A stretch of DNA of 41,364 nucleotides, taken from positions 1 through 41,364 of IMG/VR virus record IMGVR_UViG_2909257012_000006. One strand, written 5' to 3'. The notes under the pieces are model-generated. The model was not told where the DNA came from. It did not search any database and saw only the letters and a program-made list of their open reading frames with translations. Shown here piece after piece: positions 3,965 to 36,355 of this stretch (positions are counted from its first letter, which is position 1; each line of letters begins with the position of its first letter). Both the position numbers and the translations under genes were made by a program. This DNA is from a virus. Taxonomy: Duplodnaviria > Heunggongvirae > Uroviricota > Caudoviricetes.

Positions 3965-4106
3965 TGTCTGTCATTTAATTTGCTCCAGATACAAGGAATC
4001 ACCGCAGCATGGCTACGGTTGGAATTTGTTACATACCTAAACGGTACGATTGTTGATTTGTACAGTGGGTTTTACGATGCCATTCCACCCATTTGGTGAG
4101 GCATTG

Positions 4107-4364
4107 ATGATGTACAGCAAATACGATGAGGCGCAGTTCCACTTGAGGCTTACACACGAGTTGCACGCTAAGATTAAGCAGCGTGCAAAAATGAATAACA
4201 GGTCTATCAATTCCGAAATTGTGGCTACGATGGAAGAATCACTCTCCAAACCATCACCTGTAAGCGGGTATCGTGATGAAGAAGAGAGGCTGGCCTCATT
4301 AATCTCGGAACGAGTAAAAGAAGTTGCGGCTGATATCCTTAGAAAAGAAAAAACCCGCGATTAA
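4107..4364 (+). CDS. mnt: Mnt-like ribbon-helix-helix repressor (Arc/MetJ family)
   Basis: FHLRLTHELHAKIKQRAKMNNRSINSEIV...SLSKPSPVSGYRDEEERLA resembles recalled P22 Mnt; start chosen at ATG with GGTGAGG RBS. Confidence 0.65.
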   Translation: MMYSKYDEAQFHLRLTHELHAKIKQRAKMNNRSINSEIVATMEESLSKPSPVSGYRDEEERLASLISERVKEVAADILRKEKTRD

Positions 4365-4375
4365 GCGGGTTTAGT
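4353..4375. terminator. Bidirectional rho-independent terminator (ACCCGC-GATTAA-GCGGGT) between convergent genes
   Basis: Hairpin with T-run on - strand side (TTTTTCTTTTCT); mnt-like stop codon lies in the loop. Confidence 0.55.
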
Positions 4376-4378
4376 TGG

Positions 4379-4600
4379 TTAGTTATCAAAAAGTCCGTAC
4401 GTTTCTTCTTCTTCAGGTGTAAGGGGAAGAATCTCTACTCTATCTATAGATACCTTTTCAATGTACCCATGAGGTCTACTTAAAATTAAAGCTCTCTCAT
4501 GCCACAGAACTCCAAGAATGTGATACCTTCCAGCATCGCCTTTTACCCTGGCTCTTCCTTTGATTCTTGGAGGCATAATGCCATATTTTTTCTTTGCCAT
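4379..4600 (-). CDS. Hypothetical protein, last gene of ant operon
   Basis: 73-aa ORF abutting upstream gene; no recognisable motif. Confidence 0.45.
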   Translation of the reverse strand: MAKKKYGIMPPRIKGRARVKGDAGRYHILGVLWHERALILSRPHGYIEKVSIDRVEILPLTPEEEETYGLFDN

Positions 4601-5328
4601 TATGCAACATTACTCCCATGAATCAGGTGTTGTAGTGCTTTAACACCTTCCGCATTGTAGCGGAATGCTTCCACCTGTTTGCTGGAATGCGCAGATTTAT
4701 CCAGGAAGAACTTCCCGTACTGCTCAGTTTTGAGGTTGTTTGCGTTAGCAATGCGACCAATCTTGTTGGCCGTTACTCCAAGCTGCTCTGCAACCTCCCC
4801 TGCTGAGTAGTAATGCTCTTCTATTGCCGGAAGAGGTATTGCATTAAAACCAACGAGCGGGTTGATTATACTTGCTGCCGCTGTCTGCTTTGCCTCAGGC
4901 GCAAGATTTGGCATCAGATCGAACAGATTGGTAACAGCTTCAACCGTCATTTTCAGTGTTCGCGCCTGGCGATACTCAACAAGTCCACTCGACGATTTAC
5001 CGCTTTTAATGTGCGCTTCTTGCATACTTTCAAGTTGGTCTACAAGTGAGCGGCGAACAGCTTTAGATTCACGAGCAGCCACTCGAAGGGCTTGCTTAAT
5101 TGACATAACAACTTTTTCAGAAGTTGTCTTGTTTGATTTTTGAACTACGAAAATTTCGTAGTGCTCACCTTCAAGTTCATCCTTAATGCGTGCAATAAAG
5201 TCGTTATTGCGAACTTCTTTTTCCCCGCACTGTCTACGAGCATGATTGACCATCTCTAACAGGTACTGGCTATCAATGGTTTTATCCGTGACAACGGATC
5301 CGATGTTTGCTACATTCTTAAAAGTCAT
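4600..5328 (-). CDS. Second antirepressor-like protein with C-terminal KilA-C/ANT domain
   Basis: C-terminal YSAGEVAEQLGVTANKIGRIANANNLKTEQYGKFF motif; ATG at 5328 has AGGA RBS (the track ORF starts at a TTG at 5415). Confidence 0.6.
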   Translation of the reverse strand: MTFKNVANIGSVVTDKTIDSQYLLEMVNHARRQCGEKEVRNNDFIARIKDELEGEHYEIFVVQKSNKTTSEKVVMSIKQALRVAARESKAVRRSLVDQLESMQEAHIKSGKSSSGLVEYRQARTLKMTVEAVTNLFDLMPNLAPEAKQTAAASIINPLVGFNAIPLPAIEEHYYSAGEVAEQLGVTANKIGRIANANNLKTEQYGKFFLDKSAHSSKQVEAFRYNAEGVKALQHLIHGSNVA

Positions 5329-5415
5329 TAGGCATTCCTTATGTGGTAGTAAGGGTGTGACATAGGCCGCCAGCAGCACACTGGCGGTTTTCTTTTGCGC
5401 CGTCCTGGGCACCAA

Positions 5416-6054
5416 TCAATGAATCCATTCCTCGCCGCGAAGTTTTGCCAGCATTGGCTGAGCGTTCTTTACGACAAAATTGTTGGGATCAAGATTCTTC
5501 ATTTCACGAAGAAGCGATTTCTTGGTTTCTTCTGACATGTAGCGAGTCTCATATGCAATATCGTAAATCCTTCCTGAAAGCTCAGAACCAATTTGCTTCA
5601 TTCCTGGGTAGATGTGTTTGCACATTTGTTGACTCTTCTCCATCCACAATTGTAAGTAGCAGAGATTAACCAGTTCTTCGTCAGTAAACTGTTTTGCAAT
5701 CGGTGAGCATTCTGCCTGCCGATCCAAAATATCCAGCACCCAGCGGCGGAACTCTTTGGCCTTGGGCGTAGAAGCAAACATCGCCACCAAGTGAGCGCCT
5801 CGGAGCGAGTAAACTCTGACCGATTTGTTACGTAAGCTATTGTTTATTCCGTTGACCTTCATATTGAGGGTCAATGACATTGAGTCGGAAAATTCGTCAG
5901 CATTACGGGCATAAATTTGGCTGATGGCATCAGTTTTTTTATAGCCGAGAGCCTTAGCTAGTTCGGCGGAGGTGAACCAGATAGACCCGCCCTCTGTTAC
6001 AGGGTTAAAAGTGAATCCTTGGAAGTTATAATCTGATTTTGCTACAATATTCAT
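5416..6054 (-). CDS. ant: Antirepressor with Bro-N domain
   Basis: Bro-N-like N-terminus FQGFTFNPVTEGGSIWFTSAELAKALGY; ATG at 6054 with AAGGA RBS; position downstream of arc. Confidence 0.65.
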   Translation of the reverse strand: MNIVAKSDYNFQGFTFNPVTEGGSIWFTSAELAKALGYKKTDAISQIYARNADEFSDSMSLTLNMKVNGINNSLRNKSVRVYSLRGAHLVAMFASTPKAKEFRRWVLDILDRQAECSPIAKQFTDEELVNLCYLQLWMEKSQQMCKHIYPGMKQIGSELSGRIYDIAYETRYMSEETKKSLLREMKNLDPNNFVVKNAQPMLAKLRGEEWIH

Positions 6055-6127
6055 GTTAGTTTCCTTGGGTACGGTTACTGACATAGAGGCCCGGTTTGTG
6101 TTCGCGCACTTCCGGGCTTCACTATTT

Positions 6128-6304
6128 TTACTGGGCATTAGCTCTTTCCTCTCTCAGGCTTTTAGCCAGTCGCTGCACAATCGCAGAGTTGATAGAAATT
6201 CCATCCATTTCAGCTACGCGTCTGATCTCCTCCTTCATTCGCGCTGGCAAACGAAGCTGGAAACTCTGACTTTTACGACCACTGTAAAGAACATCGCTCA
6301 TCAT
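6128..6304 (-). CDS. arc: Arc-like ribbon-helix-helix repressor
   Basis: SQSFQLRLPARMKEEIRRVAEMDGISINSAIVQRL resembles recalled P22 Arc; GGAG RBS before ATG at 6304. Confidence 0.65.
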   Translation of the reverse strand: MMSDVLYSGRKSQSFQLRLPARMKEEIRRVAEMDGISINSAIVQRLAKSLREERANAQ

Positions 6305-6320
6305 CAATATCTCCGTCATA

Positions 6321-6341
6321 ATGACATCACCATGATGTCAT
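6321..6341. promoter_or_regulatory. 21-bp palindrome ATGACATCA-CCA-TGATGTCAT in arc/mnt divergent control region; candidate operator
   Basis: Perfect 9-bp half sites seen directly; located between divergent RHH repressor genes. Confidence 0.4.
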
Positions 6342-6421
6342 GACACCATTATGATGCCATTGCTCATAATGTCAATATGATGCTACTGTGTTTTTTATTG
6401 CTCATATGCCTTGCGAATAAG

Positions 6422-6676
6422 AAAATGTCAGAAAAAGACGAATCAAATTTCATAGAAAGATTTACGGTTAGAATGCCTGACGGCATGCGTAGTGCTATTG
6501 CGGAAAGGGCTAAACGAAACGGTCGATCTATGAACTCAGAGATAGTTCAAATTCTTGAGGATGCGTTATCATCTGACGTCTCATCAGTAGACAAATCATT
6601 AGATCTTAAACAAATAAAATCTTTACTTGATAAAATTTCCAACGAGTTACTGGATAGAATCCCAAAAGACACATAA
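6422..6676 (+). CDS. Second RHH (Arc/Mnt-family) repressor, divergent from arc
   Basis: FTVRMPDGMRSAIAERAKRNGRSMNSEIVQIL RHH signature; start uncertain (weak RBS). Confidence 0.55.
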   Translation, partial: KMSEKDESNFIERFTVRMPDGMRSAIAERAKRNGRSMNSEIVQILEDALSSDVSSVDKSLDLKQIKSLLDKISNELLDRIPKDT

Positions 6677-6722
6677 CAAAACATTATCATCCGGTGTTCT
6701 GCTCAAAACTAAGGAGGTTGGT

Positions 6723-7112
6723 GTGAAGCAATTTCTTACTGCTATGTTCTTATTCATATCTTTTGGGGCTACAGCAGAGTGCTGGGTCGTTGGAGATATG
6801 CGCGGAATAAGCTATTCAGAACGAAATAATTTCCATCCGGAAGAAGATGGTTTTAGTGGAACATTCATCATTAAGACAAACGGTGAAGATGCCAGCATCA
6901 CATATTCTGGGACAGATGCGGGCGGCATGGCTTACAAAGCATTGTCTAAAAACTCCATCATAGGAATCGGCGCGAATGGCGAAACTCAACGCGTTATCGA
7001 CTCATGGGTAATACATCCTACTGGAACAGTTTTAATGTCAAAAACCATTTCTGGTTATGGGAATATGGATTCAACCAAAGCTTTTGTTGGAAAAGTAAAA
7101 AGAAAATGTTAA
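6723..7112 (+). CDS. Small secreted/periplasmic protein with N-terminal signal peptide (moron-like), co-transcribed with RHH gene
   Basis: AAGGAGG RBS 5 nt before GTG; N-terminus KQFLTAMFLFISFGATA then ECW (AxA cleavage motif). Confidence 0.55.
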   Translation: MKQFLTAMFLFISFGATAECWVVGDMRGISYSERNNFHPEEDGFSGTFIIKTNGEDASITYSGTDAGGMAYKALSKNSIIGIGANGETQRVIDSWVIHPTGTVLMSKTISGYGNMDSTKAFVGKVKRKC

Positions 7113-7136
7113 CGATTGAATCCAATTCCCCATACG

Positions 7137-8978
7137 TTACTGCTGTGTTGCCTCAGTAGCAAGCAGCGGCCTGATGGCATTTGCAGCGTTACTCAACGCT
7201 CTTTCATAGGCTGGTGTTCCTGCTTTGGTGTTTGCCAGACGTAAGAGCGCATTCCTTGCTGCTTTGGACTCATACAAGCGCATCATTGCACCGAAACCAG
7301 CCTCAAGCCCCATTGATACGCCAAGAGTCGCAGTTGCGCCAATCGTCCTTATCCTGTTGGCTTGCGATTGCCCCGTCTGAGTTACTACATTTGCGGTGTC
7401 TGACCTTGCTGTTTGCTGCAGAACTTCATGAAGAGCATCAAGTTCTTTCATGTGCTTTCCAGAAAAAATAGTGTTGTAAATTTCACCGCCTGACTGAGAT
7501 TTCAGCTTATTAACTTCAGTGATGAACTTGGCTGGAGAGTCACCGGCCTTTTCCGCTATTTTGCTGACGTAAGCTGCACGCATAGCATCTTTCCCTTTAT
7601 CATCCAGTGCGCTCCAGATTCGTTTCACGTCAGATGGTTTTCTGCTTAATACAACGGTATTTATAAGTTCAGGACTGGCTTCACTGCTTGCCTTGTTGAG
7701 TTTGTTAGCAATGTTTTTATTAAGCACCTTATTATAAACGTTTGCATAATCGGAATTTGCTTTAAGGTATTTTGCTGCGTCTGATGCACCGAGGTTTTTA
7801 GCAACTGCGTTACGAAGGTCTTTTGACATTGCATTCTCTACCATATTGGTAGCTGCTTTTGCCTGGTTGGGGAAGACCATAGCATCTCCCTGAACATTAG
7901 ATCTAAATGCTGTTCTGTGCTGACGCAAGAGATCAAACGTAACATCCAAATCAGTTGCAGGGTTTGCTAATTCTTCACGTAGGTTACGCAAGGATGTAAG
8001 CAGGCTTTGATTGGCAGACGTCCCAAGCCGTTCCTGTCTTGCGATCGCTGTATTCAGAGCATTCATGGTATTTGTGGTATCAACTGCGGCATTACCCATT
8101 TTATTGGTGACGTCATTGATAACAGCGCCAGCGGCATCCTTCCGCCCCCTTAACGTGGTGGTCAGAGATTTCACCACATCATCAGGGTTGTAATCACCAA
8201 AACGGTCAAAATAATTGCTTACCAGCTTACTACGCGTTGCATATTGCTCCGCACGCTTTGAACCTGTCCCTAGCAAAGCCCCCTCAGCATCCTGAGTAAG
8301 GCCACGAGTGAAAGCATTTTTCGGCGGGATAACATCAGATGTCATTGGTGTCACGCCCATCGATTCTGATGTGGCAATTTTCTTCGCCACTTCTGGCGCA
8401 ATATCACCTTTTATGGCCGTTATTCCACGCCCTATTCCCTTTGCTGCGGCGGAAAGAACACCCTGAGCGGCAAGGTTAACTCCGGCATTTTTAGCTGCAT
8501 TTTGTGCGAAATCGCCTTTCTGATTTGCGGCCTCTGCCAGTGATCCAATAGCCATGCTTCCTGCCGTTCCAACTCCTGGAACTAAATACCCACCAATTGT
8601 TTCACCGGCTTGTGCGTAGGGGTCTGTCGGTCGATCGACAGGGCGATAAACATCATCCAAAACCTTGGGGCCACCAAGCCCCTGGCTGATTGCATTAATC
8701 AGACTTGCGCCACCCTGCAATACGTCAAATGGTATGTTTACCAGACCACGACCAGCCTGTTCTGCAATTTGCCCTGCACTTTGACCACCAGTGAGCCAAT
8801 CGCCAGCTTGTTGCATCAATGATGGTTCTTCCCGTGTTGGTGCATTATTGGCCTGATTAACTGTTTGTTGCTGAACAGCCTGACCAGCAAAATACTCATC
8901 AATGGCGGTGCCAATATCTTCGGTGCTCGTACCATCAGGAAAGGTAAATGTCTTACCGTTTGCAGTTACTTTCATCAT
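7137..8978 (-). CDS. Ejection/internal virion protein, P22 gp16-like
   Basis: 613 aa; size and synteny match P22 gp16; Ala/Gly-rich. Confidence 0.7.
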
Positions 8979-32771: not shown

Positions 32772-32888
32772 ATGCCCTCCATAGTAACCATGAAACAATA
32801 ATACGATATGTACTTTTGGAATGCAAACAAAAAATACATCTTGTGCATGGATGGTTTTAGTACAGAGCGTAATAATAAGGATATGAAA
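32772..32888. promoter_or_regulatory. Divergent OR/pR/pRM control region between cro and cI
   Basis: 117-bp intergenic region between divergent repressor genes with partial inverted repeats; operators not resolved. Confidence 0.4.
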
Positions 32889-33542
32889 ATGAAATGGTAT
32901 GAACTGGCTAGATCCAGAATGAAAGAGCTCGGCATAACTCAAGAGAAGTTAGCTGAAGAGCTTGGTATGACGCAGGGTGGAATTGGTCACTGGTTGCGCG
33001 GATCTCGTCATCCATCTCTTGACGAGATTGGTGTGGTATTTAAATACCTTGGTATTGATAACGTCTCATTCAACCACGACGGTACATTTTCACCTGTTGG
33101 CGAATACTCATCTGCCCCCGTTAAAAAACAATATGAGTACCCTGTTTTTTCTCATGTTCAGGCCGGGATGTTCTCGCCTGAGCTTAGAACCTTTACCAAA
33201 GGTGATGCGGAGAGATGGGTTAGCACAACCAAAAAAGCCAGTGATTGTGCGTTTTGGCTTGAAGTTGAAGGTAATTCCATGACCGCGCCAACAGGATCCA
33301 AGCCAAGCTTTCCTGACGGGATGTTAATTCTCGTTGACCCTGAGCAGGCTGTTGAGCCAGGTGATTTCTGCATAGCCAGACTTGGTGGTGACGAGTTTAC
33401 CTTCAAGAAACTGATCAGGGATAGCGGTCAGGTGTTCCTACAACCACTAAACCCGCAATATCCAATGATCCCATGCAATGATAGCTGTTCCGTAGTAGGG
33501 AAAGTTATCGCCAGCCAGTGGCCTGAAGAGACATTTAGTTAA
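32889..33542 (+). CDS. cI: CI prophage repressor: novel N-terminal HTH domain fused to lambda-CI-type C-terminal S24 domain
   Basis: C-terminal ~130 aa ([39 protein letters not shown]...) near-identical to recalled lambda CI; N-terminal HTH differs. Confidence 0.9.
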
Positions 33543-35122: not shown

Positions 35123-35207
35123 TGGCACTAACAACTGAAGTGGTTTACTGAATTTGGCCACCTGAACAGAGGTGATATGCTCACCTCAGAACAACACAGG
35201 TGCCATA

Positions 35208-36355
<1,148 letters not shown>

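Follow-up and report, generated by a model that had tools for sequence, protein, structure and literature searches.

Hex ("heterologous exclusion") is the imm434 function required for the exclusion of phage P22 by Salmonella lysogens (PMC3564112, citing Susskind and Botstein 1980), and is also annotated 'repressor protection protein'. The hex gene is co-transcribed with cI from P_RM, and its replacement in a hex::cat strain increased spontaneous induction about 30-fold in a RecA-dependent manner. In vitro, purified sHex, a 6-kDa fragment, protected the 434 and P22 repressors from RecA-stimulated cleavage, and overproduced full-length Hex was toxic (PMC3564112). A second point of comparison is SieA of P22, which is thought to act on the ejection-protein conduit, and which is an inner-membrane protein with three predicted transmembrane segments and no signal sequence (PMC10883804). 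Here, we focus on a distant relative of Hex encoded at the place of sieA in a P22-like E. coli prophage. The window, that is the whole stretch of DNA analysed, comprises 41,364 nucleotides (positions 1 to 41,364 of the IMG/VR virus record IMGVR_UViG_2909257012_000006), and the open reading frame (ORF) under study lies at 6723-7112 on the plus strand. Positions 5400-7200 are 100% identical to Ecol_276, MNCRE44 and 875.

The 129-amino acid (aa) product was assigned to phrog_2651 (2.9e-61), listed in PHROGs as of unknown function, and so was Hex of phage 434 (1.4e-58). BLASTP aligned the two proteins end to end over 133 columns, with 27% identity (E 3e-12). A translated search of phage genomes retrieved 97% homologues at the same position in the Salmonella phages Emek and ST-35, and full-length homologues of 27-28% identity were found by tblastn in 434, HK446, HK633, Sf6 (gene 38), Sf101 and others. 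When 1.84 billion representative sequences were searched with a profile, 188 clusters (50% identity) were obtained at E <= 0.001, and among the 150 clusters listed most lengths were about 125-135 aa. The window protein and 434 Hex (about 130 aa each) share the architecture of the family, namely a signal-like segment, an X-Cys-aromatic motif (X-Cys-Trp in both), one domain of about 110-116 aa and, at the C-terminus, a further Cys. In an alignment of 36 sequences, the residues C20, W21, G28, D42, Y71, G81, W95, K107 and G123 are invariant and C129 is nearly so. Among 197 full-length proteins, CW follows the segment preceding the Cys in 139, the others inspected having CY, CF or CL at that place, and 131 carry a Cys within their last 12 residues. 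With a founder already known, the window gene is a new member of the family at a new genomic position. This membership was overlooked in an earlier note on the window, written from its letters, as was the conflicting cytoplasmic function published for Hex.

With regard to genomic context, the Hex-family gene of 434/Sf6-type phages overlaps the stop codon of a cI-type repressor, and the same arrangement is found in Enterobacter and Yersinia prophages. Like hex, the window gene lies immediately downstream of a prophage repressor gene. However, hex belongs to immC, whereas here the upstream gene encodes a Mnt-like ribbon-helix-helix (RHH) protein of immI and the downstream one is a gene 16 homologue. 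The S24-type repressor gene of the window (32808-33542) is followed by an N-like gene and not by a Hex homologue, and a search for a second Hex copy within the window found none. The mature proteins also differ in charge, that of the window being neutral (isoelectric point (pI) 7.0) with a basic KVKRKC tail, and 434 Hex acidic (pI about 4.9). The association of the family with repressor operons is not universal, since distant members in Aeromonas (loci L012-L015, also L019) adjoin integrase, resolvase or transposase genes, with no identifiable repressor. Furthermore, a common variant from E. coli (P0012, a cluster of 642 members) diverges after residue 112 (...TISGYRRVKSPNAGTNQ...), with loss of the final strand and of the Cys at the C-terminus, so the Hex-like copy may be disrupted or fused in many E. 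coli genomes.

The ORF runs in frame from GTG 6723 to TAA 7110-7112 and encodes MKQFLTAMFLFISFGATA followed, after the predicted cleavage site, by ECWVVGDMRGISYSERNNFHPEEDGFSGTFIIKTNGEDASITYSGTDAGGMAYKALSKNSIIGIGANGETQRVIDSWVIHPTGTVLMSKTISGYGNMDSTKAFVGKVKRKC. The earlier note had read a ribosome-binding site and a GTG start here, and a Shine-Dalgarno motif AAGGAGG is indeed present at 6711-6717, 5 nt upstream of the GTG. The motif alone is weak evidence, because the window holds seven copies of it versus 3.5 expected from shuffles. GTG 6723 is taken as the start because three comparisons agree: a 62%-identical homologue (locus L020) has the same AAAACTAAGGAG context with ATG at the matching codon; homologues of 88-91% identity open with MKLII at the equivalent aligned position; and in E. 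coli O19:H7 730V1 an identical ribosome-binding site and GTG AAG precede an unrelated ORF. The Prokaryotic Genome Annotation Pipeline (PGAP) start in RefSeq is ATG 6744 (WP_001334102.1), a choice that costs the protein its charged N-region and half of its hydrophobic core. PGAP also flags the Mnt-like gene (6425-6577) as a partial pseudogene, 'missing C-terminus', despite its intact frame, and both calls look like annotation artefacts. A 161-aa ORF starting at TTG 6627, present in the program-made ORF list, was rejected: it overlaps mnt, and its extension is unconserved in relatives that have other upstream contexts. The ratio of nonsynonymous to synonymous substitution rates in the mature part is 0.13-0.18 versus close relatives, so the gene is real and under purifying selection. 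Of 5,426 complete E. coli genomes, 146 (about 2.7%) carry it at >=95% nucleotide identity, and relatives are encoded on 217 IMG/VR stretches.

A classical signal peptide cleaved after ATA had been proposed, and inspection of the sequence together with family statistics bears this out as a prediction. The N-terminus has the features expected of Sec substrates processed by signal peptidase I, that is a charged N-region (Lys2), an uncharged core within the range of 7-15 residues (the 12 residues FLTAMFLFISFG) and small residues at -3 and -1 (A-T-A ahead of Glu19, which opens the sequence ECW). Hydropathy analysis of the ORF shows this N-terminal hydrophobic segment and no other, the mature part being hydrophilic. 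Among 139 full-length family members, the segment preceding the conserved Cys is most commonly 19-20 residues long, Ala occupies the predicted -1 site in 112, and one of A, S, V and T the -3 site in 121. The first 18 alignment columns are poorly conserved (majority-residue frequency 0.39 vs 0.64), yet uniformly hydrophobic. In the relatives of 88-91% identity, changes have reached saturation over the first 54 nt, against about 97% identity in the mature part, so that two unrelated signal peptides, MKQFLTAMFLFISFGATA and MKLIIAMAF(L/F)VFSFSVSA, are found on nearly the same mature domain (window 6723-6776 versus L093 and L008, 3001/4001-4054). Such a junction implies a recombination breakpoint at or near the cleavage site, and the exchange of signal peptides on one mature domain is what would be expected if export itself were under selection.

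A lipoprotein nature was considered for the window protein and rejected, as Glu precedes the Cys. In the family, this residue is mostly E, D, N or Q, so most members lack a lipobox. Separately, G, A or S stands directly before the conserved Cys in 27 of the 139 members (P0019 and P0042 among them), e.g., SSIAS-C and SFAG-C; this resembles a lipobox, and some members may therefore be lipid-anchored and not soluble in the periplasm. Indirect support for export of the family comes from the conserved Cys pair, from the toxicity of overproduced Hex and from the experimentally determined N-terminus of sHex. The latter, Glu43 in the 158-aa numbering, is the residue directly after ANS at the predicted signal-peptidase site of MIRIAALLSILLTTSANS|ECW (434 hex, locus L002, 2501-2905). 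Taken with its family, the window protein is very probably an exported Hex-family moron.

The mature domain comprises 111 aa, and not about 105 as first estimated. A structure prediction followed by a fold search had been suggested as a check. AlphaFold2, run on the 36-sequence alignment, gave a model (predicted local distance difference test (pLDDT) 88.1, predicted template modelling score (pTM) 0.77), in which the signal helix is followed by nine strands of 14, 5, 6, 6, 5, 8, 9, 11 and 14 residues, arranged up-and-down as a barrel. No specific structural relative emerged from the fold search with this model, all hits having E >= 5.6e-3 and template modelling (TM) scores <= 0.5, and the profile search of PDB sequences returned chance-level matches only (E 0.22 and 1.2). 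The grand average of hydropathy (GRAVY) of the mature domain is -0.33, and the two strand faces have mean hydropathies of -0.73, with 12 charged residues, and 0.90, with 6. The barrel is predicted to be soluble, and not inserted into the outer membrane, because it is hydrophilic, several strands have only 5-6 residues, and charges occur on both faces. In the model, Cys20 belongs to the first strand and Cys129 to the last, and a disulfide between them, closing the barrel, is plausible. Scans of Pfam (E <= 0.1), NCBIfam (E <= 0.01) and PADLOC yielded no family for the window ORF, and none for 434 Hex.

The gene was expected between the immI repressor and the ejection-protein genes, at the sieA position of P22, and this is where it lies: the Mnt-like gene ends at 6676, and the gene 16 homologue, convergent with the ORF, begins 24 nt downstream, followed by homologues of genes 20 and 7. 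In P22, sieA is likewise downstream of mnt, in the same orientation, at 22 nt from gene 16. P22 SieA thus shares with the window gene its slot and its being a prophage-encoded envelope protein (predicted in the case of the window), but not its sequence, to which the window protein bears no similarity, nor its multiple transmembrane segments. With P22 SieA and the SieA-like protein of E. coli EN-1077 as queries, tblastn detected no sieA homologue in the window.

Comparison of sister prophages revealed that the content of this slot is exchanged in a cassette-like manner. About 250 complete E. coli genomes have the ant-arc-mnt module, and in the best-ranked matches homology is lost at about 6716-6731, at the ORF start. 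In EN-1077, a 99.8%-identical ant-arc-mnt module with the same ribosome-binding site is followed by a 212-aa SieA-like protein (phrog_7745, 2e-20). In 730V1, where the mnt gene is also the same as in the window, the ORF in the slot is unannotated and encodes about 62 aa, VKKKFVNVAKCAIFIFFMTFYGFSAGEGFDRDANAFSFFCLSIVVIIVWVELKQTLFHVLGK, with two hydrophobic segments (L005, about 4330-4520). The order in Salmonella prophages and in E. coli C is mnt, a Rap1a/Tai gene (PF18602, 9.7e-15), the Hex-like gene and gene 16 (L008, 3650-3985; L025, 2101-2436), so that the repressor operon of these P22-like prophages includes a further periplasmic protein, that of the Rap1a/Tai gene. Prophages of the FORC_031 type carry, between mnt and the Hex-like gene, a predicted 139-aa lipoprotein, MKRIIGVVAGAILLSGC... 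(L024, 1964-2383, minus strand), whose PEGA-domain match (E 0.0037) is weak and does not reach the Pfam cutoff. Across the 80 IMG/VR loci carrying the ORF that made up the slot survey, mnt lies directly upstream of the Hex-like gene in about 27, Rap1a is present in 13, the lipoprotein gene in about 20 and the Emek-type genes in about 9, and gene 16 is convergent just downstream in at least 70. The moron character proposed for the ORF is borne out by this alternative cargo, by its patchy presence among near-identical prophages and by its deviant guanine-cytosine content (40.5% vs 47.2% for the window). Judging from the prophages that do not have the gene, it is presumably dispensable for lytic growth.

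We propose that this moron product would be exported by Sec and cleaved by signal peptidase I, and that its mature part would fold in the periplasm into a small, soluble, up-and-down β-barrel, probably closed by a disulfide that joins the second residue of the mature part, Cys20, to Cys129 at the C-terminus. Expression in the lysogen would most likely proceed by read-through from the promoter of the mnt-like repressor, in parallel with the co-transcription of hex and cI in 434. The protein would then most likely protect the lysogen at the envelope. More precisely, it would exclude superinfecting phages by blocking DNA delivery in the periplasm, the compartment in which P22-like phages assemble their gp7/gp20/gp16 conduit, and would replace the inner-membrane SieA functionally, not by homology. 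The earlier suggestion that a periplasmic protein at this place could block DNA entry is strengthened on two counts, because the protein is homologous to 434 Hex, which was defined genetically by the exclusion of P22, and because the near-identical mnt module of EN-1077 carries a SieA-like gene in the slot. We give the exclusion role a chance that is even or slightly below. The account as a whole, i.e., an exported periplasmic Hex-family barrel expressed in the lysogen and excluding P22-like phages, appears evenly poised, and our confidence in any specific target is low.

Small phage-encoded proteins with a signal sequence that stop incoming genome delivery outside the cytoplasm are exemplified by Spackle (Sp) of T4, which inhibits the gp5 tail lysozyme, and by Ltp of the Streptococcus phage TP-J34, which targets the tape measure protein. 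Their sequences are unrelated and their folds helical, Ltp is a lipoprotein, and the phage types differ from that of the window. Sp and Ltp may be regarded as functional analogues of the proposed mechanism; no homology to them turned up in the searches made here, none of which was dedicated to it.

Several points weigh against a periplasmic exclusion factor. Identity to Hex is only 27%, and Hex itself may exclude P22 either by an injection block or by abortive infection. The experimental support concerns 434 Hex, the window protein being read from its sequence and a model, and the sole modern study of Hex places its action in the cytoplasm, as a block to RecA-stimulated repressor cleavage (PMC3564112). 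PADLOC holds no phrog_2651/Hex family. The Rap1a neighbour in sister prophages points equally to defence against envelope toxins other than those of phages, and the P_mnt-like promoter that would drive expression is a weak consensus match (9/12).

The last but one of these points leads to the best-surviving alternative, in which the protein would be a periplasmic immunity protein or inhibitor directed against an envelope toxin (a peptidoglycan hydrolase of a type VI secretion system (T6SS), a lysozyme or a bacteriocin), and would be lysogenic-conversion cargo aiding its host in competition. The Rap1a/Tai4 proteins of PF18602 are immunity proteins against T6SS amidases; they are small and periplasmic, have signal peptides, and in sister prophages are encoded directly upstream of the Hex-like gene. 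They are neighbours and not homologues, as the window ORF has no PF18602 match. More generally, neither Rap1a/Tai nor PliC/MliC lysozyme inhibitor profiles matched the ORF in searches of Pfam, NCBIfam and PDB sequences. We regard this alternative as unlikely, and were the protein to provide only routine lysogenic conversion, the finding would be an ordinary one.

The next alternative transfers to the window protein the role published for 434 Hex, in which a cytoplasmic protein prevents the RecA-stimulated autocleavage of the LexA-like repressor of the prophage. The 30-fold, RecA-dependent increase in induction upon hex deletion and the protection of repressor by sHex in vitro (PMC3564112) speak for it, and the prophage of the window does possess an S24-type repressor. 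However, nearly all family members have a signal peptide, and the conserved Cys pair is another feature of exported proteins; because the family is predicted to be exported, a direct action of Hex on repressor or RecA in the cytoplasm is doubtful. Furthermore, sHex, which ends at Asn103 and corresponds to residues 19-79 of the 134-aa form, covers roughly half of the predicted barrel, and guanidine hydrochloride was used in its purification (PMC3564112). The hex- allele has, directly behind cI, a cat cassette equipped with a promoter and a terminator of its own (PMC3564112), so an altered cI expression could also account for the phenotype. Finally, the upstream partner of the window gene, Mnt, is not a RecA substrate, as generally known for P22 immI. 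On these grounds, a cytoplasmic role of the window protein seems improbable. PMC3564112 never raises export, signal peptide or periplasm in its text, and was the only work on Hex retrieved in our literature search; the 2024 SieA paper (PMC10883804) mentions neither Hex nor 434. The original 1980 Virology report aside, none of the literature searched describes the family as exported, notes that sHex begins at the predicted cleavage site or reports the exchange with SieA in the slot.

A small calycin-like periplasmic protein that binds small molecules or lipids, with a role in host physiology or virulence unrelated to defence, is a further alternative. Against it stand the fold-search values given above, the scant cavity space left in a 111-aa barrel with several strands of 5-6 residues, and the genomic slot and family phenotype, which favour exclusion, so that such a function is quite improbable. 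An integral eight-stranded outer-membrane barrel of the Lom/Ail/PagC type was rejected on strand length and charge as very improbable, since about ten or more residues per strand are required, both faces bear charges (12 and 6) on a domain with GRAVY -0.33, and the C-terminus KVKRKC has no aromatic residue and ends in a conserved Cys pair member.

Beyond the periplasmic exclusion factor proposed for the window, one may ask about the family at large. Hex has had its name since 1980, and the one modern paper on it regards the protein as cytoplasmic. In their build, the family members resemble proteins exported to the periplasm, and a divergent branch occupies the place of sieA, in a slot that swaps unrelated envelope proteins. 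Exclusion in the periplasm, if true, could add to the known block of podovirus DNA delivery a second one with a different mechanism, and would open the RecA model of Hex to re-examination. We can further speculate, while holding it doubtful, that the Hex family constitutes a widespread, unrecognised class of soluble periplasmic exclusion proteins, disulfide-closed barrels binding the trans-envelope DNA-delivery machinery of the incoming phage, and that the RecA/repressor activity of the half-barrel sHex is not physiological. For P22-like phages, the target would be the gp7/gp20/gp16 conduit or a virion-borne cell-wall enzyme. By the same speculation, the immI slot would be a hotspot for non-homologous envelope exclusion or immunity cassettes, namely SieA, Hex-like proteins, Rap1a, the lipoprotein and the small protein with two transmembrane segments. 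In the E. coli genomes counted above and in Salmonella prophages, the gene is always 'hypothetical', its signal peptide truncated by the called start, and its function is relevant to phage host-range prediction and phage therapy.

The features of the locus are collected in Table 1. The Mnt-like gene matches the N-terminal domain of P22 Mnt with about 54-55% identity over 37-38 aa (E 2e-13), and the arc-like and ant genes are divergent from it. The mnt operator of P22 has a place relative to arc equivalent to that of the inverted repeat, and the two promoter-like elements overlap, as in P22 immI.

Table 1. Features of the immI slot and of the Hex-family gene in the window.
Feature	Positions	Strand	Basis
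Inverted repeat ATGACATCA-CCA-TGATGTCAT (9 bp, perfect) in the interval from which arc-ant and the mnt-like gene diverge; candidate Mnt/Arc operator	6321..6341		Repeat search
P_ant-like promoter, TTGACA-16 nt-CATAAT (11/12), leftward to arc and ant	6348..6375	-	Consensus match only
P_mnt-like promoter, ATGCCA-16 nt-TATGAT (9/12)	6354..6381	+	Consensus scan, weak match
Mnt-like ribbon-helix-helix repressor gene, 83 aa	6425..6676	+	Pfam Arc 1.4e-17; match to P22 Mnt N-terminal domain
46-nt spacer with AAGGAGG; junction for alternative cargo in sister prophages	6677..6722	+	No terminator
Signal-peptide codons 1-18, MKQFLTAMFLFISFGATA	6723..6776	+	Sequence inspection; predicted signal peptidase I cleavage after Ala18
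Mature 111-aa domain Glu19-Cys129 and stop; predicted Hex-family soluble beta-barrel, conserved Cys20/Cys129	6777..7112	+	
Gene 16 homologue (ejection/DNA transfer protein), slot boundary	7137..8978	-	phrog_770, 1e-279

The P_mnt-like promoter is the probable source of a transcript covering both the RHH gene and the ORF, and the only other plus-strand candidate of the consensus scan lies at 6607-6636 inside mnt (9/12). No convincing intrinsic terminator was detected, either in the spacer behind mnt or past the end of the ORF (z +0.86 and -1.59), and inspection of the spacer for a promoter of its own found only TATCAT, without a usable -35. Because the gap is 46 nt and has no terminator-like hairpin, co-transcription of the ORF with the RHH gene is likely in this prophage. 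In other prophages, opposite-strand genes separate mnt from the ORF homologue, so the ORF may have its own promoter.

Elsewhere in the window, two overlapping plus-strand ORFs are present at 35172-36355 in the early-left region, the first (112 aa) resembling by eye a transposase orfA of the IS3 family and the second having 272 aa; if this segment is an insertion sequence, the prophage may be defective. A second Arc/Mnt-family gene (4050-4364, plus strand), flanked by the tailspike gene and by the end of the ant operon, matches P22 Mnt better, and along more of its length, than does the gene at 6425-6676 (47% over 73 aa, E 9e-20), and an additional antirepressor-like gene (phrog_1726) occupies 4600-5415.

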